Below are positions 4,105-44,187 of a stretch of 47,389 nucleotides of DNA, in pieces. The stretch's first letter is position 1; every line of letters starts with the position of its first letter. Below the pieces are notes generated by a model. The model searched no databases. It saw only the letters and a list, made by a program, of their open reading frames with translations, and was not told the DNA's origin. The stretch lies in NCBI RefSeq assembly GCF_036507355.1, contig NZ_AP027879.1; one strand, written 5' to 3'. This stretch comes from Escherichia coli (GTDB lineage Bacteria; Pseudomonadota; Gammaproteobacteria; Enterobacterales; Enterobacteriaceae). Position numbers and translations under genes: made by a program.

Positions 4105-4941
4105 TTATCCTCTGAAACCGTATGGTATTCTGATATCTAAGCCCTCACTTTCTTTATCTATTTTATAAGAAAACCTTAGCTTTGATGCTCTTCTTGCGAC
4201 TCTCTCAACGATTTTAACTTCGAGATGATTAATCTCTGTATATTGATTTATTTTTTCAATATTTTTTTGCAGAAAAACCTTATTAAAATCCTTAAAATTC
4301 TGATAAAGGTAAACTTTTTCGCCATTATCTATTCTGAATAATTCAAGTTCATCCTTTAATACATCTACTTCAATGTCGAAAAATGTCTTTTTACCACTGC
4401 TGTATTGTTTCCTGATAAACTGATAAAGCATATTTGAATTTTGATCAGCGAGTCTTACAGACGATATCAAAACCTGAGTAGTGTAAGAATCCTTTAACAT
4501 CGTGATATATGGCTCAATGACATGTGAAAAAGCAATATCAATATATCCTTCACTTTCAACATAATCACAAAACGCAGTCAGGTTCATAAGCCTGACTGCA
4601 TCAGAAGGTAATTTACCTCTCTTCTTCGTATGTCCAGAGCTTTGATTGCCCTGAGGTGTGAGAAGTTGATTTCGAGGAATGCGAATAACACTGGCCTGAA
4701 GTTCTTCTGCCCCCTCTTTCAACTGCCGGTAAGCACCTGTTACATCAATATCAGCGATAAATGCATATTCCCGAGCCGTAATACGAAAGGTTGCCCCCTC
4801 AGATAACTCTTCACGTGAATCAATCTGCGCCATAGCCATAAACAAAATTCTTCTGGCAGACAAAGGCAACGATGAGAATGTGCTGTTAATTTCATTTCTG
4901 TGGCGAATTTTTGTTTTCTTTGTAACGCTCAGTAAGTTCAT
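4105..4941 (-). CDS. repB: Rep_3-family iteron-plasmid replication initiator
   Basis: 278 aa; family assigned from overall resemblance to iteron-plasmid initiators; iterons and DnaA boxes lie directly upstream. Confidence 0.85.
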   Translation of the reverse strand: MNLLSVTKKTKIRHRNEINSTFSSLPLSARRILFMAMAQIDSREELSEGATFRITAREYAFIADIDVTGAYRQLKEGAEELQASVIRIPRNQLLTPQGNQSSGHTKKRGKLPSDAVRLMNLTAFCDYVESEGYIDIAFSHVIEPYITMLKDSYTTQVLISSVRLADQNSNMLYQFIRKQYSSGKKTFFDIEVDVLKDELELFRIDNGEKVYLYQNFKDFNKVFLQKNIEKINQYTEINHLEVKIVERVARRASKLRFSYKIDKESEGLDIRIPYGFRG

Positions 4942-5193
4942 ACATTACCTGTGGTTTTTAAGTTCTGATGGTGAAATCATAACCACAAAGGCGGAAATAT
5001 GTAAAGTGGTTTATCCACCTTATGTATTTCCACCAAAACACGGATCACATGAAAGAATTTTTATCATTTATATTCAATATGATAGAAATGCGCAGGTATC
5101 CACCTTTTAACGTCATACGTTAAATTAGAGCACTATAAAGAACTAAAGAAATGAAGATACAAAGATACGAATATCTGAATAAAAACAGAAAAA

Positions 5194-5313
5194 TGCGTAC
5201 CCATCCACCTTTCAGTGCGTACCCATCCACCTTTCAGTGCGCAGCCATCCACCTTTCATGAAAATTACAGTGCGTACCCATCCACCTTTCAGTGCGTACC
5301 CATCCACCTTTCA
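5194..5313. repeat. Five 22-bp iterons (TGCGTACCCATCCACCTTTCAG) of the Rep_3 replicon
   Basis: Five near-identical direct repeats, two plus one plus two with an 11-bp spacer. Confidence 0.75.
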
Positions 5314-5484
5314 TTTTGAGGCGACAAAAAACAACACCTATCTTAATGAAATTATTGATAAAAAAGCTGGCACAATGTTTGCAGAATAAGTTAAAGTAAG
5401 TTAAAGATCTTAAAGTAGATCTACCGATCTACATTTAAGATCTTAAAAACAAGAAGTTTAATAAGCAAAAAAACACAAAAAATC

Positions 5485-5532
5485 TGTGGATAACTCTGCT
5501 CAAAACAAAAAATTCACAGCGCCTGTGGATAA
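5485..5532. promoter_or_regulatory. Two DnaA boxes (TGTGGATAA) beside an AT-rich stretch; part of oriV
   Basis: TTATCCACA consensus at 5485-5493 and 5524-5532; AT-rich region 5340-5480. Confidence 0.5.
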
Positions 5533-6174: not shown

Positions 6175-6426
6175 ATGAGCTATCAAATTCTGACAACTAC
6201 AGCGGCCAGTATTACTGACCTGAAAAAAAATCCTATGGGAACCGTAGCTGAAGGTGAAGGGGACGCTGTTGCGATCCTGAACCGAAACGAACCGGCGTTC
6301 TATTGCGTTCCACCAAAACTTTACGCCTACTATCGGGAACTCGCTGAAGATGCTGAGTTAAACGCTGTTGCTGATGAGCGCATGAAAAACCCGGAAATTG
6401 TGAAGGTTAACCTGGATGACCTATGA
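6175..6426 (+). CDS. stbD: Phd/YefM-family antitoxin
   Basis: 83 aa; overlaps the downstream toxin gene in typical TA arrangement. Confidence 0.85.
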   Translation: MSYQILTTTAASITDLKKNPMGTVAEGEGDAVAILNRNEPAFYCVPPKLYAYYRELAEDAELNAVADERMKNPEIVKVNLDDL

Positions 6427-6697
6427 ACTGGCTTTTGACCGTAGAGCACTGAAGGAATGGCAGAAACTCGGCCACACCATCCGTGAACAATTCAAAAAGA
6501 AACTGGCAGAACGGCTGGAAAATCCACGCGTACCCGCAGCCCGGTTACATGGTCATGCTGATCGCTATAAAATCAAACTTCGTGCATCTGGCTACAGACT
6601 TGTATACCAAGTCATTGATGAGAAAGTCGTTTTACTCGTTATTGCCGTTGGAAGAAGGGAAAGCAGCGAAGTCTATCAGATCGCAGATTTGCGCTAA
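6416..6697 (+). CDS. stbE: RelE/ParE-family toxin
   Basis: 93 aa; 11-bp overlap with stbD. Confidence 0.85.
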   Translation: MTYELAFDRRALKEWQKLGHTIREQFKKKLAERLENPRVPAARLHGHADRYKIKLRASGYRLVYQVIDEKVVLLVIAVGRRESSEVYQIADLR

Positions 6698-6771
6698 GAT
6701 TAATCATCAAATGATTGGTGATGCTGCCAACTTACTGATTTAGTGTATGATGGTGTTTTTGAGGTGCTCCA

Positions 6772-7047
6772 GTGGCTTCTGTTTCTATCAGCTGTCCCTC
6801 CTGTTCAGCTACTGACGGGGTGGTGCGTAACGGCAAAAGCACCGCCGGACATCAGCGCTATCTCTGCTCTCACTGCCGTAAAACATGGCAACTGCAGTTC
6901 ACTTACACCGCTTCTCAACCCGGTACGCACCAGAAAATCATTGATATGGCCATGAATGGCGTTGGATGCCGGGCAACAGCCCGCATTATGGGCGTTGGCC
7001 TCAACACGATTTTACGTCACTTAAAAAACTCAGGCCGCAGTCGGTAA
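6772..7047 (+). CDS. insA: IS1 InsA
   Basis: 91-aa zinc-finger protein [16 protein letters not shown]. Confidence 0.85.
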
Positions 7048-7469
7048 CCTCGCGCATACAGCCGGGCAGTGACGTCATCGTCTGCGCGGAAATGGACGAA
7101 CAGTGGGGCTATGTCGGGGCTAAATCGCGCCAGCGCTGGCTGTTTTACGCGTATGACAGGCTCCGGAAGACGGTTGTTGCGCACGTATTCGGTGAACGCA
7201 CTATGGCGACGCTGGGGCGTCTTATGAGCCTGCTGTCACCCTTTGACGTGGTGATATGGATGACGGATGGCTGGCCGCTGTATGAATCCCGCCTGAAGGG
7301 AAAGCTGCACGTAATCAGCAAGCGATATACGCAGCGAATTGAGCGGCATAACCTGAATCTGAGGCAGCACCTGGCACGGCTGGGACGGAAGTCGCTGTCG
7401 TTCTCAAAATCGGTGGAGCTGCATGACAAAGTCATCGGGCATTATCTGAACATAAAACACTATCAGTAA
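6966..7469 (+). CDS. insB: IS1 InsB frame (expressed as InsAB by -1 frameshift)
   Basis: InsB-like translation in the -1 frame overlapping the insA 3' end. Confidence 0.8.
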
Positions 7470-7484
7470 GTTGGAGTCATTACC

Positions 7485-7787
7485 AACCAGTTCACCACCT
7501 ACTCGCTCCGCGATTGTGGCAGTCTTCGAAATCCCCGGACGATCCGCCTTTATGAAAGTCTTGCTCAATTCAAATCTTCAGGCTTATGGGTTACTACTCA
7601 TGCTTGGTTAAATGACCGTTTCGTCTTACCGGAATCCCAGCAGAAGAACTTGGCAGAGTTGAAACGATCTTTCCTTGATCCTGCACTCAAGCAGATAAAT
7701 GAGAAAACACCTTTACTTGCTAAGTATAGTATTGATGATTCAGGAAAATTTCTGTTCTCAATAATTGATAAGCAAAATCCCGTCTGA
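7485..7787 (+). pseudogene. repA: 3' remnant of a second replication initiator gene, 5'-truncated by IS1
   Basis: Open frame from the IS1 junction encoding a Rep-like C-terminus (WLNDRFVLPESQQKNLAELKRSF...) followed by 37-bp iterons. Confidence 0.5.
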
Positions 7788-7837
7788 CATAAATCAGCAC
7801 ACATGAGCCTGTCATTTGACAAATTTTTGTCATGAAG

Positions 7838-8370
7838 ATGGGCGGATTTCCACACAGCACCGGCGCCCGGTAAGGTGGGCGGATTTCCACACAGCACCGG
7901 CGCCCGGCAAGGTGGGCGGATTCCCACACGGCACCGGCGCGCGGCAAGGTGGGCGGATTCCCACACGGCACCGGCGCGCGGCAAGGTGGGCGGATTTCCA
8001 CACAGCACCGGCGCCCGGCAAGGTGGGCGGATTCCCACACGGCACCGGCGCGCGGCAAGGTGGGCGGATTCCCACACGGCACCGGCGCGCGGCAAGGTGG
8101 GCGGATTTCCACACAGCACCGGCGCCCGGCAAGGTGGGCGGATTCCCACACGGCACCGGCGCGCGGCAAGGTGGGCGGATTCCCACACGGCACCGGCGCG
8201 CGGCAAGGTGGGCGGATTTCCACACAGCACCGGCGCCCGGCAAGGTGGGCGGATTCCCACACGGCACCGGCGCGCGGCAAGGTGGGCGGATTCCCACACG
8301 GCACCGGCGCGCGGCAAGGTGGGCGGATTTCCACACGGCACCGGCGCCCGGCAAGGTGGGCCGATTCCCA
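7838..8370. repeat. About 14 tandem 37-bp iterons (GGGCGGATTYCCACACRGCACCGGCGCSCGGCAAGGT); IncN-like origin array
   Basis: Head-to-tail direct repeats with two alternating variants; no spacers. Confidence 0.75.
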
Positions 8371-8861
8371 TATCGACATGTATGTAGCTTGTGTTATCTG
8401 TGGATTGTGCAGCTCAGCGGGTCGCTGGTCGTATGGCGGAGTGTCCCCCGTAACCGGCCGCGTGCGGCCGCTAACGCGCAGTACGGCGCCGCGTCCCGCA
8501 GACGGGCCGCCGTTCCCGCGCGCAGCACTGCGCACCCCCGTGGGGGACGTACGGCAGCTGCGTGGCGGTGAGCGGGATTAGGGCTTTGCAGCTACCGTGT
8601 TAAGTTCCCTGGTGTCGCTGAAATAGTTGATGAACATCCCCCTAAGCGTCAGCAGCAAGCTGCCGCCGCTTAGGCCCCGGAAATCACGCCCTTTACGTCG
8701 TAAACGCCGTAAAGCCCGCTCACCGGGGTTAAAAGGGATTACTTTGACTTCTTCATTGCTGTTCGCGAGTTAAGGCTAATCAGGGCAGGGGGTAGGGTGG
8801 CAGAATTTATAGCCCGGCAACCGGCTACGCCGGGCTTTCGGCGCCATTTTACAACACAGAC

Positions 8862-9918
8862 GGCTTTGTTGAATAAATCGAACTTTTGCTGAGTTGAAGG
8901 ATCAGATCACGCATCTTCCCGACAACGCAGACCATTCCGTGGCAAAGCAAAAGTTCAAAATAACCAACTGGCCCACCTACAATAAAGCCCTCATCAACCG
9001 TGGCTCCATAACTTTCTGGCTGGATGATGAAGCTATTCAGGCCTGGTATGAGTCGGCAACGCCTTCATCACGGGGAAGACCTCAGCGCTATTCTGATCTC
9101 GCCATCACCACCGTTCTGGTCATTAAACGCGTGTTCAGGTTGACCCTGCGGGCTGCACAGGGTTTTATTGATTCCATTTTTACACTGATGAATGTTCCGT
9201 TGCGCTGCCCGGATTACACCAGTGTCAGCAAGCGCGCAAAGTCGGTTAATGTCAGTTTCAAAACGTTCACCCGGGGTGAAATCGCGCATCTGGTGATTGA
9301 TTCCACCGGGCTGAAGGTCTTTGGTGAAGGCGAATGGAAAGTCAAAAAGCATGGCCAGGAACGCCGTCGTATATGGCGAAAGTTGCATCTGGCAGTTGAC
9401 AGCAACACACATGAAATCATCTGTGCAAACCTGTCGCTGAACAATGTGACGGACTCAGAAGCCTTCCCGGGTCTTATCCGGCAGACTCACAGAAAAATCA
9501 GGGCAGCATCGGCAGACGGCGCTTACGACACCCAACTCTGTCACGATGAACTGCGGCGTAAGAAAATCAGCGCGCTTATCCCGCCCCGAAAAGGCGCGGG
9601 TTACTGGCCCGGTGAATATGCAGACCGTAACCGTGCTGTTGCGAATCAGCGGCTGACCGGGAGTAATGCGCGGTGGAAATGGACAACAGATTACAACCGT
9701 CGCTCGATAGCGGAAACGGCGATGTACCGGGTAAAACAGCTGTTCGGAGGTTCACTGACACTGCGTGACTACGATGGTCAGGTTGCAGAGGCTATGGCCC
9801 TGGTACGAGCGCTGAACAAAATGACGAAAGCAGGTATGCCTGAAAGCGTGCGTATTGCCTGAAAACACAACCCGCTACGGGGGAGACTTACCCGAAATCT
9901 GATTTATTCAACAAAGCC
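8862..9918 (+). mobile_element. IS903-group insertion sequence (IS5 family), complete, 1057 bp
   Basis: 18-bp terminal inverted repeats GGCTTTGTTGAATAAATC; length matches IS903. Confidence 0.85.
8939..9862 (+). CDS. tnpA: IS903 transposase, 307 aa
   Basis: GTG start at VAKQKFKITNW; DDE transposase of the IS5 family. Confidence 0.85.
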   Translation: MAKQKFKITNWPTYNKALINRGSITFWLDDEAIQAWYESATPSSRGRPQRYSDLAITTVLVIKRVFRLTLRAAQGFIDSIFTLMNVPLRCPDYTSVSKRAKSVNVSFKTFTRGEIAHLVIDSTGLKVFGEGEWKVKKHGQERRRIWRKLHLAVDSNTHEIICANLSLNNVTDSEAFPGLIRQTHRKIRAASADGAYDTQLCHDELRRKKISALIPPRKGAGYWPGEYADRNRAVANQRLTGSNARWKWTTDYNRRSIAETAMYRVKQLFGGSLTLRDYDGQVAEAMALVRALNKMTKAGMPESVRIA

Positions 9919-10001
9919 GCGCGGGGCTAACAGGTAAGATGAAATTAAGGTTTTACGAACACTGCCACTGTAATTAATTACCGCTACTTTCATAAATCAC
10001 C

Positions 10002-10388
10002 TCAGAATTTTTTGTTGAACTTCTTAGGGTCGAAATTCTCACCGATTTTCTTGAAGAATTCTTTATCAATAATGCCGGGACTCTCTGCTTTTTTACTTTC
10101 CTGCACTTCAGGCTCAGACGGTTGTGTATTGTGCAATACACTTTCCGCTGCACCCTTCGCGCTACTCTTATCATGCGTATTGTGCAATACATTTTTTCGG
10201 TTTTGCCGCGTTCTATACAGTGCCATCTCAAGCCCTTTGGCTGTTACCGAAAAGCTGTATTCGCTGTCGAGGATTTCAGCAATTTCATGCCGCGTTAGCC
10301 CTCTGTCCAGCCAGTTCTCGATTTCATTTAGGCGCAATCTGACAGCAGCCGATAAGTTGCGGGGTTTCAGATCTGCTGGTTTATTCAT
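10002..10388 (-). CDS. Hypothetical DNA-binding protein with predicted HTH, 128 aa
   Basis: N-terminal region LDRGLTRHEIAEILD; lysine-rich C-terminus; repeat array directly upstream. Confidence 0.5.
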   Translation of the reverse strand: MNKPADLKPRNLSAAVRLRLNEIENWLDRGLTRHEIAEILDSEYSFSVTAKGLEMALYRTRQNRKNVLHNTHDKSSAKGAAESVLHNTQPSEPEVQESKKAESPGIIDKEFFKKIGENFDPKKFNKKF

Positions 10389-10445
10389 AACCCCCTCCGT
10401 TGTATGAAAATGACTCTACAACACTCGTAAGAAGGGGTCAATCGA

Positions 10446-10610
10446 GTTTTGTAGTTTATCTGTAGTTTTATTGTAGTCTATTTGTAGTCTGTCACGTTTT
10501 TTGTAGTTTATTTGTAGTTTTATTGTAGTCTATTTGTAGTCTTACAACACTAAGGCAAAACGTTTTTTGTAGTTTATCTGTAGTTTATCTGTAGTTTTTG
10601 GTTGCTCAGA
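10446..10610. repeat. Array of about 11 direct repeats of an 11-bp unit (YTGTAGTYTWT)
   Basis: Contiguous repeats upstream of the HTH gene; 22-bp palindrome ATGGTCATGCAAGCATGACCAT follows at 10610-10631. Confidence 0.6.
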
Positions 10611-10936
10611 TGGTCATGCAAGCATGACCATCAAAGAATAGGACGCTTTTTAGCCAAATGCCCCTTAACCTACGGAGATCGCCCTACCAAAAAAAGATGA
10701 TTTTTTATCCCTTAACCTGCTATACACCTAACGCAGCGTGATAAATCACGCTATCGCACTGATTTAAAAGAAAAAAAACAAAATTTAGCCATGCTGCGGT
10801 ATTACCCAGGTATTACAAATCAAATCTAAATTACTGATTTAAATAACTTTTTATTTATTACTTTGGTAATACTATGATTTCACCGTATTAGACACCCTTT
10901 TTTCGTTTAAAAAATGCACAAATTGAGGACTGAATG

Positions 10937-11870
10937 GGCTTTGTTGAATAAATCGAACTTTTGCTGAGTTGAAGGATCAGATCACGCATCTTCCCGACAA
11001 CGCAGACCGTTCCGTGGCAAAGCAAAAGTTCAAAATAACCAACTGGCCCACCTACAATAAAGCCCTCATCAACCGTGGCTCCATAACTTTCTGGCTGGAT
11101 GATGAAGCTATTCAGGCCTGGTATGAGTCAGCAACACCTTCTTCACGAGGCAGACCTCAGCGCTATTCTGACCTTGCCATCACGACTGTGCTGGTCATTA
11201 AACGCGTATTCAGGCTGACCCTGCGCGCTGCGCAGGGCTTTATTGATTCCATTTTTTCTCTGATGAACGTTCCGCTACGCTGCCCGGATTACAGCTGTGT
11301 CAGCAGGCGGGCAAAGTCGGTTAACGTCAGTTTCAAAACGTTCACCCGGGGTGAAATCGCGCATCTGGTGATTGATTCCACCGGGCTGAAGGTCTTTGGT
11401 GAAGGCGAGTGGAAAGTCAAAAAGCATGGCCAGGAACGCCGTCGTATATGGCGAAAGTTGCATCTGGCAGTTGACAGCAACACACATGAAATCATCTGTG
11501 CAGACCTGTCGCTGAACAATGTGACGGACTCAGAAGCCTTCCCGGGTCTTATCCGGCAGACTCACAGAAAAATCAGGGCAGCATCGGCAGACGGCGCTTA
11601 CGACACCCGGCTCTGTCACGATGAACTGCGGCGTAAGAAAATCAGCGCGCTTATCCCTCCCCGAAAAGGTGCGGGTTACTGGCCCGGTGAATATGCAGAC
11701 CGTAACCGTGCAGTGGCTAATCAGCGAATGACCGGGAGTAATGCGCGGTGGAAATGGACAACAGATTACAACCGTCGCTCGATAGCGGAAACGGCGATGT
11801 ACCGGGTAAAACAGCTGTTCGGGGGTTCACTGACGCTGCGTGACTACGATGGTCAGGTTGCGGAGGCTAT
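10937..11870 (+). mobile_element. Second IS903-group copy, 3'-truncated, lacks right IR
   Basis: Left IR intact; homology ends near 11870 where the Tn5393-type IR begins; several aa differences from copy 1. Confidence 0.75.
11014..11870 (+). pseudogene. tnpA: IS903-group transposase, 3'-truncated
   Basis: Reading frame runs into Tn5393 IR sequence after aa about 286. Confidence 0.6.
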
Positions 11871-11950
11871 GGGGTCGTTTGCGGGAGAGGGCGAAATCCT
11901 ACGCTAAGGCTTTGGCCAGCGATATTCTCCGGTAAGATTGATGTGTTCCC
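11870..11950. repeat. Tn5393-type 81-bp terminal inverted repeat
   Basis: GGGGTCGTTTGCGGGA... immediately downstream of the strB stop; a second, slightly divergent copy at 28388-28468. Confidence 0.55.
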
Positions 11951-11976
11951 AGGGGATAGGAGAAGTCGCTTGATAT

Positions 11977-12688
11977 CTAGTATGACGTCTGTCGCACCTG
12001 CTTGATCGCGGCCGCGATAGCTAGATCGCGTTGCTCCTCTTCTCCATCCGCGTTCCAAGCTGCGGAAAGGCACCCATAAGCGTACGCCTGGTCGAGCAGG
12101 CGACGCGGATCGACGTCCAGCGCACGAGAGAATGCGTCCGCCATCTGTGCAATGCGTCTAGGATCGAGACAAAGGTCGTCTCTGTCAGCCGGATCGTAGA
12201 ACATATTGGCGGCGCCAAAGCCCACTTCACCGACCAGACCGACGGGATCTATCACCAGCCAGCCGCGACTGGAGAACATGATGTTTTCATGATGCAGATC
12301 GCCATGTAGCCCACGCAGTTCCGAGGCATTGCTCATCATTTGATCGGCTATAATCGCCGCGTGGACGTAGTCAGTTTGACAACCTGCGTTTTGATCATCG
12401 CGCGCCCGCTGAAACAAAGCTGCAAAGCGATCCCGGATCGGGAGAAGGGCAGAAGGCAGGGGTTCCTCAGATGCGGCATACAGCTTCGCCATTAGTTCCG
12501 CTGCAATTTCGGTCGCCTGGTAGTCGCCGTGCTCGGCAACGATGTGAGAGAGCATTCGCTCCCCGGCATATTCGAGCAACATCAGATTGTTCTCACGACC
12601 GAGCAACCGGACTGCTCCCCTCCCATTGCGCCATACCAGATAGTCGGCCCCGCGCAGTTCATCAGCAATGTCTTCTATAGGTTTCAAT
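11977..12688 (-). pseudogene. strB: aph(6)-Id (strB), 5'-truncated by IS26
   Basis: Matches the C-terminal 237 aa of the full StrB at 27526-28362; N-terminal codons derive from the IS26 end. Confidence 0.85.
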
Positions 12689-27526: not shown

Positions 27527-28362
27527 TGTTCATGCCGCCTGTTTTTCCTGCTCATTGGCACGTTTCGCAACCTGTTCTCATTGCGGACACCTTTTCCAGC
27601 CTCGTTTGGAAAGTTTCATTGCCAGACGGGACTCCTGCAATCGTCAAGGGATTGAAACCTATAAAAGACATTGCTGATGAACTGCGCGGGGCCGACTATC
27701 TGGTATGGCGCAATGGGAGGGGAGCAGTCCGGTTGCTCGGTCGTGAGAACAATCTGATGTTGCTCGAATATGCCGGGGAGCGAATGCTCTCTCACATCGT
27801 TGCCGAGCACGGCGACTACCAGGCGACCGAAATTGCAGCGGAACTAATGGCGAAGCTGTATGCCGCATCTGAGGAACCCCTGCCTTCTGCCCTTCTCCCG
27901 ATCCGGGATCGCTTTGCAGCTTTGTTTCAGCGGGCGCGCGATGATCAAAACGCAGGTTGTCAAACTGACTACGTCCACGCGGCGATTATAGCCGATCAAA
28001 TGATGAGCAATGCCTCGGAACTGCGTGGGCTACATGGCGATCTGCATCATGAAAACATCATGTTCTCCAGTCGCGGCTGGCTGGTGATAGATCCCGTCGG
28101 TCTGGTCGGTGAAGTGGGCTTTGGCGCCGCCAATATGTTCTACGATCCGGCTGACAGAGACGACCTTTGTCTCGATCCTAGACGCATTGCACAGATGGCG
28201 GACGCATTCTCTCGTGCGCTGGACGTCGATCCGCGTCGCCTGCTCGACCAGGCGTACGCTTATGGGTGCCTTTCCGCAGCTTGGAACGCGGATGGAGAAG
28301 AGGAGCAACGCGATCTAGCTATCGCGGCCGCGATCAAGCAGGTGCGACAGACGTCATACTAG
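27526..28362 (+). CDS. strB: Aminoglycoside 6-phosphotransferase APH(6)-Id
   Basis: 278 aa from MFMPPVFPAHW; 1-bp overlap with the strA stop. Confidence 0.95.
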   Translation: MFMPPVFPAHWHVSQPVLIADTFSSLVWKVSLPDGTPAIVKGLKPIKDIADELRGADYLVWRNGRGAVRLLGRENNLMLLEYAGERMLSHIVAEHGDYQATEIAAELMAKLYAASEEPLPSALLPIRDRFAALFQRARDDQNAGCQTDYVHAAIIADQMMSNASELRGLHGDLHHENIMFSSRGWLVIDPVGLVGEVGFGAANMFYDPADRDDLCLDPRRIAQMADAFSRALDVDPRRLLDQAYAYGCLSAAWNADGEEEQRDLAIAAAIKQVRQTSY

Positions 28363-28387
28363 ATATCAAGCGACTTCTCCTATCCCC

Positions 28388-28468
28388 TGGGAACACATCA
28401 ATCTCACCGGAGAATATCGCTGGCCAAAGCCTTAGCGTAGGATTCCGCCCCTTCCCGCAAACGACCCC
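28388..28468. repeat. Tn5393-type 81-bp terminal inverted repeat downstream of strB
   Basis: Reverse complement begins GGGGTCGTTTGCGGGAAGGGG. Confidence 0.5.
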
Positions 28469-28717: not shown

Positions 28718-29032
28718 CTAGATCTATCTCATCTGCGCAAGGCAGAACGTGAAGACGGCCGCCCTGGACCTCGCCCGCGAGCGCCAGGCGCACGAGGCCG
28801 GCGCGCGGACCCGCGCCACGGCCCACGAGCGGACGCCGCAGCAGGAGCGCCAGAAGGCCGCCAGAGAGGCCGAGCGCGGCCGTGAGGCTTGGACGCTAGG
28901 GCAGGGCATGAAAAAGCCCGTAGCGGGCTGCTACGGGCGTCTGACGCGGTGGAAAGGGGGAGGGGATGTTGTCTACATGGCTCTGCTGTAGTGAGTGGGT
29001 TGCGCTCCGGCAGCGGTCCTGAGCGGTCCTGA

Positions 29033-29683
29033 TCAATCGTCACCCTTTCTCGGTCCTTCAACGTTCCTGACAACGAGCCTCCTTTTCGCCAATCCATCGA
29101 CAATCACCGCGAGTCCCTGCTCGAACGCTGCGTCCGGACGGGCTTCGTCGAAGGCGTCTATCGCGGCCCGCAACAGCGGCGAGAGCGGAGCCTGTTCAAC
29201 GGTGCCGCCGCGCTCGCCGGCATCGCTGTCGCCGGCCTGCTCCTCAAGCACGGCCCCAACAGTGAAGTAGCTGATTGTCATCAGCGCATTGACGGCGTCC
29301 CCGGCCGAAAAACCCGCCTCGCAGAGGAAGCGAAGCTGCGCGTCGGCCGTTTCCATCTGCGGTGCGCCCGGTCGCGTGCCGGAATGGATGCGCGCGCCAT
29401 CGCGGTAGGCGAGCAGCGCCTGCCTGAAGCTGCGGGCATTCCCGATCAGAAATGAGCGCCAGTCGTCGTCGGCTCTCGGCACCGAATGCGTATGATTCTC
29501 CGCCAGCATGGCTTCGGCCAGTGCGTCGAGCAGCGCCCGCTTGTTCCTGAAGTGCCAGTAAAGCGCCGGCTGCTGAACCCCCAACCGTTCCGCCAGTTTG
29601 CGTGTCGTCAGACCGTCTACGCCGACCTCGTTCAACAGGTCCAGGGCGGCACGGATCACTGTATTCGGCTGCAACTTTGTCAT
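29033..29683 (-). CDS. tetR: Tetracycline repressor TetR, class A (variant copy)
   Basis: 216 aa from MTKLQPNTVIRAALDLL; differs from the second copy at two residues. Confidence 0.95.
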   Translation of the reverse strand: MTKLQPNTVIRAALDLLNEVGVDGLTTRKLAERLGVQQPALYWHFRNKRALLDALAEAMLAENHTHSVPRADDDWRSFLIGNARSFRQALLAYRDGARIHSGTRPGAPQMETADAQLRFLCEAGFSAGDAVNALMTISYFTVGAVLEEQAGDSDAGERGGTVEQAPLSPLLRAAIDAFDEARPDAAFEQGLAVIVDGLAKRRLVVRNVEGPRKGDD

Positions 29684-29692
29684 GCTTGACAC

Positions 29693-29788
29693 TTTATCAC
29701 TGATAAATATAATATGTCCACCAACTTATCAGTGATAAAGAATCCGCGCGTTCAATCGGACCAGCGGAGGCTGGTCCGGAGGCCAGAC
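29693..29788. promoter_or_regulatory. tetR/tetA divergent promoter region with tet operator palindromes
   Basis: ACTTTATCACTGATAAA and CTTATCAGTGATAAAG between the divergent genes. Confidence 0.7.
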
Positions 29789-30988
29789 GTGAAACCCAAC
29801 AGACCCCTGATCGTAATTCTGAGCACTGTCGCGCTCGACGCTGTCGGCATCGGCCTGATTATGCCGGTGCTGCCGGGCCTCCTGCGCGATCTGGTTCACT
29901 CGAACGACGTCGCCGCCCACTATGGCATTCTGCTGGCGCTGTATGCGTTGATGCAATTTGCCTGCGCACCTGTGCTGGGTGCGCTGTCGGATCGTTTCGG
30001 GCGGCGGCCGGTCTTGCTCGTCTCGCTGGCCGGCGCTGCTGTCGACTACGCCATCATGGCGACGGCGCCTTTCCTTTGGGTTCTCTATATCGGGCGGATC
30101 GTGGCCGGCATCACCGGGGCGACTGGGGCGGTAGCCGGCGCTTATATTGCCGATATCACTGATGGCGATGAGCGCGCGCGGCACTTCGGCTTCATGAGCG
30201 CCTGTTTCGGGTTCGGGATGGTCGCGGGACCTGTGCTCGGTGGGCTGATGGGCGGTTTCTCCCCCCACGCTCCGTTCTTCGCCGCGGCAGCCTTGAACGG
30301 CCTCAATTTCCTGACGGGCTGTTTCCTTTTGCCGGAGTCGCACAAAGGCGAACGCCGGCCGTTACGCCGGGAGGCTCTCAACCCGCTCGCTTCGTTCCGG
30401 TGGGCCCGGGGCATGACCGTCGTCGCCGCCCTGATGGCGGTCTTCTTCATCATGCAACTTGTCGGACAGGTGCCGGCCGCGCTTTGGGTCATTTTCGGCG
30501 AGGATCGCTTTCACTGGGACGCGACCACGATCGGCATTTCGCTTGCCGCATTTGGCATTCTGCATTCACTCGCCCAGGCAATGATCACCGGCCCTGTAGC
30601 CGCCCGGCTCGGCGAAAGGCGGGCACTCATGCTCGGAATGATTGCCGACGGCACAGGCTACATCCTGCTTGCCTTCGCGACACGGGGATGGATGGCGTTC
30701 CCGATCATGGTCCTGCTTGCTTCGGGTGGCATCGGAATGCCGGCGCTGCAAGCAATGTTGTCCAGGCAGGTGGATGAGGAACGTCAGGGGCAGCTGCAAG
30801 GCTCACTGGCGGCGCTCACCAGCCTGACCTCGATCGTCGGACCCCTCCTCTTCACGGCGATCTATGCGGCTTCTATAACAACGTGGAACGGGTGGGCATG
30901 GATTGCAGGCGCTGCCCTCTACTTGCTCTGCCTGCCGGCGCTGCGTCGCGGGCTTTGGAGCGGCGCAGGGCAACGAGCCGATCGCTGA
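29789..30988 (+). CDS. tetA: Tetracycline efflux MFS pump TetA, class A (variant copy)
   Basis: 399 aa from GTG at VKPNRPLIVILSTVALDAVGIG; three aa differences from the second copy. Confidence 0.95.
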   Translation: MKPNRPLIVILSTVALDAVGIGLIMPVLPGLLRDLVHSNDVAAHYGILLALYALMQFACAPVLGALSDRFGRRPVLLVSLAGAAVDYAIMATAPFLWVLYIGRIVAGITGATGAVAGAYIADITDGDERARHFGFMSACFGFGMVAGPVLGGLMGGFSPHAPFFAAAALNGLNFLTGCFLLPESHKGERRPLRREALNPLASFRWARGMTVVAALMAVFFIMQLVGQVPAALWVIFGEDRFHWDATTIGISLAAFGILHSLAQAMITGPVAARLGERRALMLGMIADGTGYILLAFATRGWMAFPIMVLLASGGIGMPALQAMLSRQVDEERQGQLQGSLAALTSLTSIVGPLLFTAIYAASITTWNGWAWIAGAALYLLCLPALRRGLWSGAGQRADR

Positions 30989-31359
30989 TAGAGGTTTATA
31001 GCGGCTTCGTTCCCTTCCGCAACCGTCAGCATGATCTGCTCCACATGCTCGCGGCCATAGTCTATCACCGCCCGCAGCAGCATACCGGCGACCCCTCGGC
31101 CTCGCTGTTCGGGCTCCACGAAAACGCCGGACAGATGCGCCTTGTGAGCGTCCTTGGGGCCGTCCTCCTGTTTGAAGACCGACAGCCCAATGATCTCGCC
31201 GTCGATGTAGGCGCCGAATGCCACGGCATCTCGCAACCGTTCAGCGAACGCCTCCATGGGCTTTTTCTCCTCGTGCTCGTAAACGGACCCGAACATCTCT
31301 GGAGCTTTCTTCAGGGCCGACAATCGGATCTCGCCGAAATGCCTGCCGTTGCTAGACAT
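30989..31359 (-). pseudogene. GNAT-family N-acetyltransferase, 3'-truncated at the tetA boundary
   Basis: First about 123 codons GNAT-like (QRGRGVAGMLLRAVIDYGRE); frame continues into antisense tetA. Confidence 0.5.
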
Positions 31360-31364
31360 TGCCA

Positions 31365-31847
31365 GCCAGTGCCCGTCACTCCCGTACTAACTGTCACGAA
31401 CCCCTGCAATAACTGTCACGCCCCCCTGCAATAACTGTCACGAACCCCTGCAATAACTGTCACGCCCCCAAACCTGCAAACCCAGCAGGGGCGGGGGCTG
31501 GCGGGGTGTTGGAAAAATCCATCCATGATTATCTAAGAATAATCCACTAGGCGCGGTTATCAGCGCCCTTGTGGGGCGCTGCTGCCCTTGCCCAATATGC
31601 CCGGCCAGAGGCCGGATAGCTGGTCTATTCGCTGCGCTAGGCTACACACCGCCCCACCGCTGCGCGGCAGGGGGAAAGGCGGGCAAAGCCCGCTAAACCC
31701 CACACCAAACCCCGCAGAAATACGCTGGAGCGCTTTTAGCCGCTTTAGCGGCCTTTCCCCCTACCCGAAGGGTGGGGGCGCGTGTGCAGCCCCGCAGGGC
31801 CTGTCTCGGTCGATCATTCAGCCCGGCTCATCCTTCTGGCGTGGCGG
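31365..31847. other. IncQ1 (RSF1010-type) oriV fragment with direct iterons, GC-rich and AT-rich segments
   Basis: Iterons CTGTCACGAACCCCTGCAATAA at about 31386-31470, then GC-rich block and AT-rich CCATCCATGATTATCTAAGAATAATCC; identification from recalled RSF1010 sequence. Confidence 0.55.
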
Positions 31848-32770
31848 ATGATAACGGCCAGCATGGCGTCCAGAACGTCCAATGCATCATCCAGCGCCAG
31901 CGTTTCCCATGCAAGGACAAAGGCAACCAGAACCGCCATCCTTTTCTGCGGTGACATCCTGGCAATATTGAACACCGAAGTCATACCAGCATAACGTGCG
32001 AGATTTTTCAGGCGCACAGCCGGGAGTGTACTCAGGTTTTCAGCATGCAGGCCAAAATCGTTCAGAGTTTTCCAGCGTTCAATTGCTTCATTAAACGCCG
32101 GACCACTGATGGTCACAGGGCCCTTTTTCAGTGATTCCAGTAAAGACAGGCGGCTGCAATCAGTTGGCCCCAGCAGCATCTCCAGCTGTGAACGCTGTTC
32201 GGCTGACGGTATCAGTGCCAGTTTGTTCCACAGGCGCAACGTCGCCTTTTCCCTTACCTCTGAAATCAACCGGGTCAGCGTAGTGGCTCCGGGGAGAATA
32301 ATACGATGTTGCATAAGCCACCCTGTCGCCAGATCGAAAAGCAGGCCAGGACGTTCGTTGCTTATCCAGCTCCGGGTATATAAAAGACGGGTAAGGCGAA
32401 ATGTCCAGGGCCAGGCAAATTCACGATACTGATAGTGCTGACGTATCAGCGCTGCATGCTCACGGCGGGTATTTTCCCTCTGACCGTATTCTGCAAGAAC
32501 GGTGATATCACGAATCCCGAGCTGTCTGGCGGTAAAATGCCGGACGCCGGAAGGAATATGATTCATATCGGTGAGGAAGGTGCCCAGAAAACGGACACAT
32601 CCAATTTGCAGGGCAATGCCCAGACGGTTGTGATCACCTCTGCTTTTTCCGATAAATTCCTTGTCTGCTTCATCAAGGTGAAAATATCGTGCCAGCTGAA
32701 GCTCATCCGGTTCACCGGTGAATCTGCCATAGCTTTCAGTCTGCTCAGTGGTCAGAAAGTCAACGGGCAT
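31848..32770 (-). pseudogene. tnpA: Tn2/Tn3 transposase TnpA, N-terminal about 307 codons only (3'-truncated)
   Basis: MPVDFLTTEQTESYGRFTGEPDELQLARYFHL...; frame runs into oriV-fragment sequence. Confidence 0.85.
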
Positions 32771-41869: not shown

Positions 41870-41902
41870 CGTACGATTTTTTCCGAATTCTGCGGGCTCC
41901 CC
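41865..41902. repeat. Tn1721 38-bp inverted repeat (internal IR preceding the tet module)
   Basis: Reverse complement GGGGAGCCCGCAGAATTCGGAAAAAATCGTACGCTAAG. Confidence 0.8.
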
Positions 41903-42200
41903 TATCTCATCTGCGCAAGGCAGAACGTGAAGACGGCCGCCCTGGACCTCGCCCGCGAGCGCCAGGCGCACGAGGCCGGCGCGCGGACCCGCGCCACGGC
42001 CCACGAGCGGACGCCGCAGCAGGAGCGCCAGAAGGCCGCCAGAGAGGCCGAGCGCGGCCGTGAGGCTTGGACGCTAGGGCAGGGCATGAAAAAGCCCGTA
42101 GCGGGCTGCTACGGGCGTCTGACGCGGTGGAAAGGGGGAGGGGATGTTGTCTACATGGCTCTGCTGTAGTGAGTGGGTTGCGCTCCGGCAGCGGTCCTGA

Positions 42201-42851
42201 TCAATCGTCACCCTTTCTCGGTCCTTCAACGTTCCTGACAACGAGCCTCCTTTTCGCCAATCCATCGACAATCACCGCGAGTCCCTGCTCGAACGCTGCG
42301 TCCGGATCGGCTTCGTCGAAGGCGTCTATCGCGGCCCGCAACAGCGGCGAGAGCGGAGCCTGTTCAACGGTGCCGCCGCGCTCGCCGGCATCGCTGTCGC
42401 CGGCCTGCTCCTCAAGCACGGCCCCAACAGTGAAGTAGCTGATTGTCATCAGCGCATTGACGGCGTCCCCGGCCGAAAAACCCGCCTCGCAGAGGAAGCG
42501 AAGCTGCGCGTCGGCCGTTTCCATCTGCGGTGCGCCCGGTCGCGTGCCGGCATGGATGCGCGCGCCATCGCGGTAGGCGAGCAGCGCCTGCCTGAAGCTG
42601 CGGGCATTCCCGATCAGAAATGAGCGCCAGTCGTCGTCGGCTCTCGGCACCGAATGCGTATGATTCTCCGCCAGCATGGCTTCGGCCAGTGCGTCGAGCA
42701 GCGCCCGCTTGTTCCTGAAGTGCCAGTAAAGCGCCGGCTGCTGAACCCCCAACCGTTCCGCCAGTTTGCGTGTCGTCAGACCGTCTACGCCGACCTCGTT
42801 CAACAGGTCCAGGGCGGCACGGATCACTGTATTCGGCTGCAACTTTGTCAT
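42201..42851 (-). CDS. tetR: Tetracycline repressor TetR, class A (Tn1721-type copy)
   Basis: 216 aa from MTKLQ. Confidence 0.95.
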   Translation of the reverse strand: MTKLQPNTVIRAALDLLNEVGVDGLTTRKLAERLGVQQPALYWHFRNKRALLDALAEAMLAENHTHSVPRADDDWRSFLIGNARSFRQALLAYRDGARIHAGTRPGAPQMETADAQLRFLCEAGFSAGDAVNALMTISYFTVGAVLEEQAGDSDAGERGGTVEQAPLSPLLRAAIDAFDEADPDAAFEQGLAVIVDGLAKRRLVVRNVEGPRKGDD

Positions 42852-42860
42852 GCTTGACAC

Positions 42861-42956
42861 TTTATCACTGATAAACATAATATGTCCACCAACTTATCAG
42901 TGATAAAGAATCCGCGCGTTCAATCGGACCAGCGGAGGCTGGTCCGGAGGCCAGAC
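42861..42956. promoter_or_regulatory. tetR/tetA divergent promoter and operators
   Basis: Same operator palindromes as in copy 1. Confidence 0.7.
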
Positions 42957-44156
42957 GTGAAACCCAACAGACCCCTGATCGTAATTCTGAGCACTGTCGC
43001 GCTCGACGCTGTCGGCATCGGCCTGATTATGCCGGTGCTGCCGGGCCTCCTGCGCGATCTGGTTCACTCGAACGACGTCACCGCCCACTATGGCATTCTG
43101 CTGGCGCTGTATGCGTTGATGCAATTTGCCTGCGCACCTGTGCTGGGCGCGCTGTCGGATCGTTTCGGGCGGCGGCCGGTCTTGCTCGTCTCGCTGGCCG
43201 GCGCTGCTGTCGACTACGCCATCATGGCGACGACGCCTTTCCTTTGGGTTCTCTATATCGGGCGGATCGTGGCCGGCATCACCGGGGCGACTGGGGCGGT
43301 AGCCGGCGCTTATATTGCCGATATCACTGATGGCGATGAGCGCGCGCGGCACTTCGGCTTCATGAGCGCCTGTTTCGGGTTCGGGATGGTCGCGGGACCT
43401 GTGCTCGGTGGGCTGATGGGCGGTTTCTCCCCCCACGCTCCGTTCTTCGCCGCGGCAGCCTTGAACGGCCTCAATTTCCTGACGGGCTGTTTCCTTTTGC
43501 CGGAGTCGCACAAAGGCGAACGCCGGCCGTTACGCCGGGAGGCTCTCAACCCGCTCGCTTCGTTCCGGTGGGCCCGGGGCATGACCGTCGTCGCCGCCCT
43601 GATGGCGGTCTTCTTCATCATGCAACTTGTCGGACAGGTGCCGGCCGCGCTTTGGGTCATTTTCGGCGAGGATCGCTTTCACTGGGACGCGACCACGATC
43701 GGCATTTCGCTTGCCGCATTTGGCATTCTGCATTCACTCGCCCAGGCAATGATCACCGGCCCTGTAGCCGCCCGGCTCGGCGAAAGGCGGGCACTCATGC
43801 TCGGAATGATTGCCGACGGCACAGGCTACATCCTGCTTGCCTTCGCGACACGGGGATGGATGGCGTTCCCGATCATGGTCCTGCTTGCTTCGGGTGGCAT
43901 CGGAATGCCGGCGCTGCAAGCAATGTTGTCCAGGCAGGTGGATGAGGAACGTCAGGGGCAGCTGCAAGGCTCACTGGCGGCGCTCACCAGCCTGACCTCG
44001 ATCGTCGGACCCCTCCTCTTCACGGCGATCTATGCGGCTTCTATAACAACGTGGAACGGGTGGGCATGGATTGCAAGCGCTGCCCTCTACTTGCTCTGCC
44101 TGCCGGCGCTGCGTCGCGGGCTTTGGAGCGGCGCAGGGCAACGAGCCGATCGCTGA
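42957..44156 (+). CDS. tetA: Tetracycline efflux MFS pump TetA, class A (Tn1721-type copy)
   Basis: 399 aa from GTG. Confidence 0.95.
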   Translation: MKPNRPLIVILSTVALDAVGIGLIMPVLPGLLRDLVHSNDVTAHYGILLALYALMQFACAPVLGALSDRFGRRPVLLVSLAGAAVDYAIMATTPFLWVLYIGRIVAGITGATGAVAGAYIADITDGDERARHFGFMSACFGFGMVAGPVLGGLMGGFSPHAPFFAAAALNGLNFLTGCFLLPESHKGERRPLRREALNPLASFRWARGMTVVAALMAVFFIMQLVGQVPAALWVIFGEDRFHWDATTIGISLAAFGILHSLAQAMITGPVAARLGERRALMLGMIADGTGYILLAFATRGWMAFPIMVLLASGGIGMPALQAMLSRQVDEERQGQLQGSLAALTSLTSIVGPLLFTAIYAASITTWNGWAWIASAALYLLCLPALRRGLWSGAGQRADR

Positions 44157-44187
44157 TCGTGGAAACGATAGGCCTATGCCATGCGGG

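Follow-up and report, generated by a model that had tools for sequence, protein, structure and literature searches.

A 47,389-nt stretch of Escherichia coli DNA (contig NZ_AP027879.1, the whole of which is called the window below) contains an insertion sequence, IS1, that is followed directly by the 3' end of a replication initiator gene, repA, and then by a long array of 37-bp repeats. This region is very probably a non-functional relic of the replication region of an IncN1 plasmid (Inc, incompatibility group), which rides as a passenger in a multiresistance plasmid of group IncX1. The IncN content of the relic consists of the last 100 codons of repA, a 47-bp spacer, the 37-bp array and about 200 bp of a conserved upstream repeat (CUP) of the CUP6 type. 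Nothing is left of the repA promoter, of the codons before 140 or of the origin-like region that precedes repA in intact IncN plasmids. Having neither the promoter nor codons 1-139, the relic cannot make RepA, and most probably it could not act as an origin even if RepA were provided. Nothing in the sequence contradicts this reading, which we developed by comparison with a set of plasmid loci labelled L001-L021.

The repA pseudogene, identified by translation and tblastn, occupies 303 bp at 7485-7787 on the plus strand. It reads in frame as 100 amino acids and a stop codon, corresponding to residues 140-239 of the 239-residue IncN RepA, in agreement with a preliminary description of this DNA according to which an initiator gene had been reduced here to its 3' end. 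At the amino acid level (tblastn) it is 99% identical to repA of plasmids typed IncN / MOBF / MPF_T, in which the product is annotated as "replication initiation protein" and the IncN genes ardK, mucAB and resP are neighbours. At the nucleotide level, the 3' end of repA together with the spacer differs from an IncN-typed plasmid at 5 of 356 nt (98.6% identity), and the identity to the reference IncN1 plasmid R46 is 96.8% over 593 bp. Full-length IncN RepA is an initiator of the Rep_3 family (Pfam Rep3_N at residues 10-165, Rep3_C at 178-228) that matches RepE of plasmid F (PDB 1rep) with E = 1.5e-29, and the remnant corresponds roughly to the second, C-terminal winged-helix half of this protein. 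It is without a promoter, and no in-frame ATG, GTG or TTG lies upstream of a TTG at 7650; it is therefore a pseudogene, and the Prokaryotic Genome Annotation Pipeline (PGAP) labels the same DNA elsewhere "incomplete; missing N-terminus". The intact repA for a 239-residue Rep_3-family initiator that characterizes a functional IncN1 replicon is thus absent. No other IncN or IncR initiator sequence was found in the window, whose one intact rep gene belongs to IncX1 (4105-4941), and since no intact IncN RepA is encoded the array is orphaned.

Between the repA stop codon and the array lies the native 47-bp spacer (7788-7834, plus strand), which includes a short TGTCA..TGACA palindrome and is identical to the spacer of an intact IncN plasmid. 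The orphan array of predicted RepA-binding repeats extends over 7835-8370 on the plus strand and was called with Tandem Repeats Finder (period 37, 14.5 copies, 94% matches, score 932). In register it consists of 14 full units (7835-8352) and a terminal partial unit, far above what chance would produce, so that the earlier estimate of about 14 tandem 37-bp iterons holds. A 37-bp array directly downstream of repA and a close identity to IncN1, the two features by which the replicon is recognized, were both found. The assignment to the IncN group, which had been proposed in the preliminary description, is likewise borne out by comparison, the Rep C-terminus and the repeat unit both being of the IncN1 (R46/pCU1) type. 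The array had also been called intact, and this is correct for its boundaries, which have flanks native to IncN at both ends (the spacer on the left, about 200 bp at 92% identity on the right), but not for its copy number, for which no fixed count exists. Counting the terminal partial unit, orphan arrays with the same flanks have 2, 9, 9, 15, 15, 15, 24 and 25 units, and the six arrays found beside an intact repA have 7, 10, 21, 32, 34 and 39.

The units of the array are arranged in the order C B A A B A A B A A B A A D E, with two main variants. Self-identity within the array is 98.5% at a lag of 111 bp as against 94.8% at a lag of 37 bp, which reveals a higher-order period of three units, and the array of a sister IncX1 plasmid (L002) differs from the present one by exactly two 111-bp blocks. 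Together, these observations point to a three-unit block that was amplified by recent unequal exchange. One unit variant, which ends in GCGCGCGGC and is found at 7909-8315 of the window, is present in every IS1-type orphan array of more than 2 units (L001-L004, L015 and L020 were compared) and absent from 6 of 6 arrays beside an intact repA (L005-L007, L016, L017 and L019). This variant is a lineage marker, and its distinguishing part lies outside the 18-bp core of the unit. The core (AAGGTGGGCGGATTCCCA) opens the 37-bp unit. Compared with the 22-bp iterons that lie upstream of intact IncN repA, read as their reverse complement, it agrees at 15-18 of 18 positions. As a predicted RepA-binding site it has been kept in all 15 units. 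Binding of RepA to the 37-bp repeats was reportedly shown by Papp and Iyer (1995), a study cited in PMC9412624. Open reading frames (ORFs) of 170-271 codons, which cross the array in both orientations, owe their existence to the repeat.

The preliminary description equated the 37-bp iterons following repA with the IncN origin, an identification that we could not maintain. In the intact IncN1 replicons of L006 (CP154347, IncN-typed) and R46, a region with the appearance of an origin is found about 85-300 bp upstream of repA, where a DnaA-like box (ATATCCACA), about 100 bp with 74-86% A+T and 4.8 tandem 22-bp repeats occur together; the same five 22-bp core repeats precede repA in L017 and L019. 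When both strands of the window were checked, neither the DnaA-like box nor the AT-rich stretch nor the 22-bp iterons was found. There is also no DnaA box with one mismatch or fewer in 7485-8900, and the A+T content of the array and its right flank is 16-36%, except in one 50-bp bin at 54%. Because the upstream region has the classical layout of an iteron origin, the 37-bp array would represent a second, downstream cluster of initiator sites. What survives in the window would thus be an auxiliary array of the control type rather than the iterons of the origin. In the deletion analysis of pCU1 by Krishnan and Iyer in 1990 and by Papp and Iyer in 1995, the 37-bp repeats reportedly proved not to be the origin either.

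The IS1 copy at the left end of the imported module (6717-7484, plus strand, IS1A-like) is complete, as had been noted before. It measures exactly 768 bp, its terminal inverted repeats agree at 19 of 23 positions, and it has the insA (6772-7047) and insB (6966-7469) frames with an A6C frameshift motif at 7021. These are the hallmarks of the family (about 768 bp, imperfect repeats of about 23 bp, insA/insB' frames and the A6C site), and L002 and L004 have identical DNA, which bears the annotation of an IS1A-family transposase. On its left is stbE (6416-6697, plus strand), a 93-residue ORF for a RelE/ParE-family toxin and the last gene of the IncX1 backbone ahead of the junction; it lies outside the relic, and the IncX1 plasmids L002 and L004 have the same DNA, annotated there as a RelE/ParE toxin. 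The placement of IS1 after stbE was correctly described earlier, but the distance is 19 bp instead of the 20 bp given, as the stbE stop codon ends at 6697. No target-site duplication of 8-9 bp surrounds the element (caaatgatt on the left, aaccagttc on the right), which marks IS1 as a recombinant or deletion junction, where the imported module was joined to the IncX1 backbone, rather than as a primary insertion.

The distribution of the two IS1 junctions leads in the same direction. With a 120-bp probe across the IS1/repA breakpoint, and full-length matches counted in PLSDB, the identical breakpoint was found in at least 679 plasmids, whose hosts include Klebsiella, Escherichia and Enterobacter. 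In complete E. coli genomes it is present in 162 records from 157 of 5,426 genomes (2.9%), a few of them chromosomal. Its backbones include IncR, IncX1 and others. IS1 has the same right flank in the window as in L001-L004, and in L001, L003, L015, L018 and L020 the breakpoint adjoins the retA-umuDC genes of IncR backbones, there usually with the IS1X3 isoform. The left junction, between stbE and IS1, is found in 136 plasmids, and in the three IncX1 plasmids examined for it (L010-L012) the stbE-side IS1 is followed by unrelated DNA or is cut after 91 bp. Plasmid p2_BE2-5 has both junctions, the IncX1 stbE-IS1 junction and the IncR arrangement of retA, IS1X3 and the repA remnant. The plasmids most similar to the window are L002 and L004; both type as IncX1 only and have the same arrangement as the window. 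Given this distribution and the missing target duplication, the best explanation of the junction is that two IS1 copies recombined, an event that would have imported a fragment that was already dead. The earlier statement that IS1 truncates a second replicon therefore fails as an account of what happened in this plasmid, in view of the widespread breakpoint, the absent duplication and the unrelated right flanks that the stbE-side IS1 has in other IncX1 plasmids.

On the other side of the array, the sequence from 8371 to about 8580 (about 200 bp, plus strand) is the post-array IncN remnant. It is 92% identical to L005 and L006 and 87% identical to R46, in each case directly after their arrays, and about 83% identical to three other places in R46, as would be expected from the behaviour of IncN CUP repeats. 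The published order of this part of the replicon is repA - iteron I - CUP6 - resP (PMC6052338). Here the IncN-derived DNA ends, amounting in all to only about 1.1 kb, from 7485 to about 8580. The adjoining 290 bp (8571-8861, plus strand) are not of IncN origin; they are a fragment of a Klebsiella plasmid of the IncFII(K)/IncFIB(K) type, 95% identical to a part of pKPN3 (NC_009649) that follows the IncFII(K) repA of that plasmid at a distance of about 770 bp. In the window the fragment is wedged between the CUP6 remnant and IS903. The right boundary of the module is formed by this IS903-group element of the IS5 family (8862-9918, plus strand, 1057 bp), recognized by a transposase ORF of 322 residues (8894-9862) and by its terminal repeats, and in L001, L002 and L004 its counterpart bears the annotation IS5 family transposase. 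It, too, is without a target duplication, in this case of 9 bp, its flanks being different, and like IS1 it is a recombination joint and no simple insertion.

With this arrangement in mind, one may propose a history for the module. According to this proposal, IncN1 repA would have been truncated by IS1 in one old event that took place in some other plasmid. The resulting module, comprising IS1, truncated repA, the array, a partial CUP6, the IncFII(K) scrap and IS903, would then have spread, mostly by way of IncR plasmids. Homologous recombination between the IS1 of the module and an IS1 that was already present 19 bp after stbE most likely joined the module to the IncX1 plasmid. The length of the array shifts by unequal exchange, and in the present plasmid the 111-bp block appears to have been amplified. 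The sole conceivable activity of such a relic would be passive, in that its 15 putative RepA-binding cores could sequester RepA from an IncN1 plasmid in the same cell, or handcuff it; by analogy with incA of P1 and incC of F, this would be expected to lower the copy number of that plasmid.

Other explanations of the region must be weighed against this one. The plasmid may once have been a two-replicon IncX1 + IncN plasmid in which an insertion of IS1 inactivated the IncN replicon in place; IS1 does abut the truncated repA directly, and multi-replicon plasmids that include IncN are common (PMC6353027). Nevertheless, such a course of events is hardly credible when the identical breakpoint recurs in at least 679 plasmids with unrelated backbones, IS1 lacks a target-site duplication, the IncN DNA is limited to about 1.1 kb with an IncFII(K) scrap and IS903 on its far side, and the stbE-side IS1 has other right neighbours in sister IncX1 plasmids. 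It is also very unlikely that the fragment still fires as a conditional second origin whenever an IncN plasmid supplies RepA in trans. The conservation of the predicted RepA-binding core in every unit would favour such firing, as would the three clustered origins that pCU1 is said to have, of which oriV is reportedly associated with the iteron region. However, the fragment has none of the elements that precede intact repA (DnaA-like box, AT-rich stretch, five 22-bp iterons), and the array and its right flank combine the low A+T content noted above with the lack of any DnaA box at one mismatch or fewer. The interpretation of the region as a dead fragment imported between two IS1 copies has its own weak points. 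The function of the upstream region as the origin is deduced from its architecture and from the reported pCU1 deletion studies; one of the three reported pCU1 origins (oriB, oriS and oriV) may be located in or near the 37-bp array, and a literature search on these origins yielded nothing usable; and recombination between IS1 copies is proposed as the most parsimonious route.

A further possibility is that the orphan array is retained as a selectable incompatibility determinant, which binds the RepA of incoming IncN1 plasmids and thereby harms them, excludes them or tunes their copy number. In its favour, several independent types of truncation (by IS1, with about 20 bp or nothing left of repA, and by IS26: PMC6052338, PMC6288184) keep the array, the IS1 type reaches 2.9% of complete E. 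coli genomes, and in two strains described below the orphan beside a 57-kb IncN plasmid has collapsed to one full unit (ABWA45) or the IncN-replicon plasmid beside a 24-unit orphan has a second intact rep gene (M159-1). Moreover, the control iterons of P1 (incA) and F (incC) are established to cause incompatibility in trans. We still consider such retention unlikely, since hitch-hiking with IS elements and resistance genes suffices for the observed prevalence, the copy number of the orphans drifts between 2 and 25, and an intact IncN plasmid, pCE33-2, tolerates a second, 11-unit orphan in cis. Co-residence with IncN is not depleted either, at 2 strains against about 0.6 expected under independence, a tiny and non-random number drawn from among the matches listed. 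Lastly, the array might cross-react with the initiator of IncR plasmids as a set of extra control iterons, and would then be an irrelevant carry-over in an IncX1 plasmid. The initiators of the two groups are 57% identical (IncR RepB and IncN RepA, over 234 residues), their replicons have the same layout, their iteron cores agree at 13 of 18 positions in an alignment of consensus units, and the module has been described as "linked to many IncR plasmids" (PMC9412624). Yet IncR is an incompatibility group of its own, distinct from IncN; core positions 4, 7 and 8, which are nearly invariant in IncN iterons (one exception each, positions 1 and 9), are among the mismatches; and there is no IncR replicon in the window, all of which makes this explanation extremely improbable. 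Cross-talk of RepB with the array on IncR backbones is no more than conceivable, and would be irrelevant to the window. The IncR replicon itself (L008 5656-7024; L009 2398-4089) is a relative of that of IncN, with 22-bp repeats upstream of its rep gene and a 36-bp array of 10.5-19.5 copies downstream.

For the inert relic that we favour, titration of RepA in trans is plausible and, by analogy with incA of P1 and incC of F, would be mechanistically reasonable. These two loci consist of initiator-binding repeats that are located downstream of the rep gene and share the core of the origin iterons; they are dispensable for initiation, lower the copy number and cause incompatibility in trans. The likeness of the array in the window to incA and incC is offered as a functional analogy only: the IncN unit combines the 18-bp core with a GC-rich spacer into 37 bp, and the IncN array greatly exceeds those of P1 and F in size, with wide variation in its length. 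A literature search on orphan iterons and titration returned nothing relevant.

Orphan IncN arrays are common, as sequences from the 3' end of IncN repA occur in 568 of 5,426 complete E. coli genomes and the origin with the 5' part of repA in only 337 of them. Other types of orphan keep the last 20 bp or so of repA or none of it (query 282-350 and 303-350, respectively). One of these is found in pCE33-2 (L016, NZ_CP149452.1), an intact conjugative IncN plasmid that has its own array of 10 units (768-1137) and, in addition, an orphan array of 11 units (31688-32094) that adjoins IS26 and is preceded by the last 20 bp of repA, indicating that extra sites are tolerated in cis. Among the matches listed, two E. 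coli strains have an IS1-type orphan and an intact IncN ori-repA on separate plasmids. In ABWA45 (L017/L018) the IncN plasmid, of 57 kb, has 32 units, and the orphan is down to 1 full unit and the terminal partial unit between its native flanks. In M159-1 (L019-L021) the 24-unit orphan is co-resident with a plasmid that has a complete IncN ori-repA and a 39-unit array, as well as a second intact rep gene with IncX-type neighbours. This second rep gene renders M159-1 uninformative as a counter-example to incompatibility, a use of it that we considered and rejected. Both co-residences fit with harm from long orphan arrays, but with n = 2 and non-random listing they are suggestive, a lead and no evidence.

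One may go further and speculate that orphan arrays, which about 3% or more of the complete E. coli genomes contain, are selectively retained "incompatibility decoys" against IncN plasmids, from which the latter escape. We regard this as decidedly unlikely. If it were true, IncR, IncX1, IncF and IncHI2 resistance plasmids would depress or exclude IncN competitors, and IncN plasmids would escape by means of a second replicon or would co-reside only with collapsed arrays. Should the array interfere with IncN in trans at all, this would be a simple form of plasmid-plasmid competition that shapes which resistance plasmids coexist.

The relic shares with the basic IncN1 replicon (pCU1 / R46 / pKM101) the 3' end of repA, at 98-99% identity, the 47-bp spacer, the 37-bp unit downstream of repA and the CUP6-type sequence after the array. 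It differs in lacking the repA promoter, codons 1-139, the upstream origin-like region and resP, and in having the unit variant ending in GCGCGCGGC, which none of the six arrays examined beside an intact repA contains. Remnants of this class are already known, having been published as the "N region" module of IncR plasmids, and the one described here is located on an IncX1 plasmid. The N region comprises IS1X3, an IncN repA remnant, 37-bp iterons, a small IncF-derived segment and IS903B (PMC9412624, PMC11047700); there are 24.3 iteron copies in the N region of pST1023 (PMC9412624), and a truncated IncN repA is also found in the IncR pLSP plasmids (PMC11047700). The window and the N region have in common the IS1/repA breakpoint and the order of IS1, truncated repA, 37-bp array, IncF-derived segment and IS903, which in L001 and L015 is also followed by the stbA fragment described below. 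The two differ in location, 19 bp after stbE on an IncX1 plasmid as opposed to upstream of retA in IncR, in the IS1 isoform (IS1A-like versus IS1X3) and in the number of units (14.5 versus 24.3 in pST1023). No IncR repB was found in the window, and the left neighbour of the module is IncX1 stbDE. Segments of F33:A-:B- and IncHI2 plasmids, arranged as truncated repA - iteron I - CUP6 - resP (PMC6052338) or as truncated repA - iterons - gshB (PMC6288184), resemble the relic in that an IS has removed the 5' part of IncN1 repA and the array is kept inside a resistance region. They differ in having independent IS26 cuts at other positions, in keeping resP or gshB, and in having 5 or 28-31 units.

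These results have some practical consequences. Replicon typing by sequence fragments can miscall a plasmid such as this one as IncX1+IncN when only a dead remnant of IncN is present, and ORFs of 250-270 codons that run through the array should be treated in annotation as artefacts of the repeat. The case also illustrates how recombination at IS1, IS903 and IS26 shuffles fragments among IncR, IncX1 and IncF resistance plasmids.

A second scrap of the IncN family, but of another lineage, at 9919-10936, lies between the IS903 copy that bounds the module and another copy at 10937-11872, with only 80-89% identity to R46. On its minus strand is an stbA-like gene (10002-10388); 11-bp repeats that resemble StbA-binding sites form three clusters at 10448-10597, and a stretch similar to an oriT region follows (10614-10936). 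The scrap was found in at least 1,129 plasmids and might allow IncN-like helpers to mobilise the plasmid. An R388-type nick motif had no match in the oriT-like stretch. A single IncN donor for the stbA and repA fragments was considered and is probably to be rejected, the repA fragment being 97-98% identical to IncN1 and the stbA/oriT fragment 80-89% identical to R46. A search for an intact donor lineage of the latter fragment led to contexts that, even at best, are themselves mosaics.

The IncX1 replicon (4105-5532) looks complete and is the sole intact replicon in the window. Its rep gene, on the minus strand at 4105-4941, is pi-like; 22-bp iterons lie at 5194-5313, and two DnaA boxes that match perfectly, at 5485 and 5524, are part of its origin. 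An 818-bp repeat at 11871-12688 has an inverted copy at 27651-28468, and the resistance region, 12689-47389, contains five complete copies of IS26 and one IS26 fragment of 255 bp. A 2.27-kb tetR-tet(A) segment is present there twice (28724-30989 and 41902-44157, 99.2% identical), together with ORFs which, judging by their N-termini, may be qnrS1, floR, sul2, strAB, blaTEM, a sul3-like gene, a dfrA gene and a truncated intI1.

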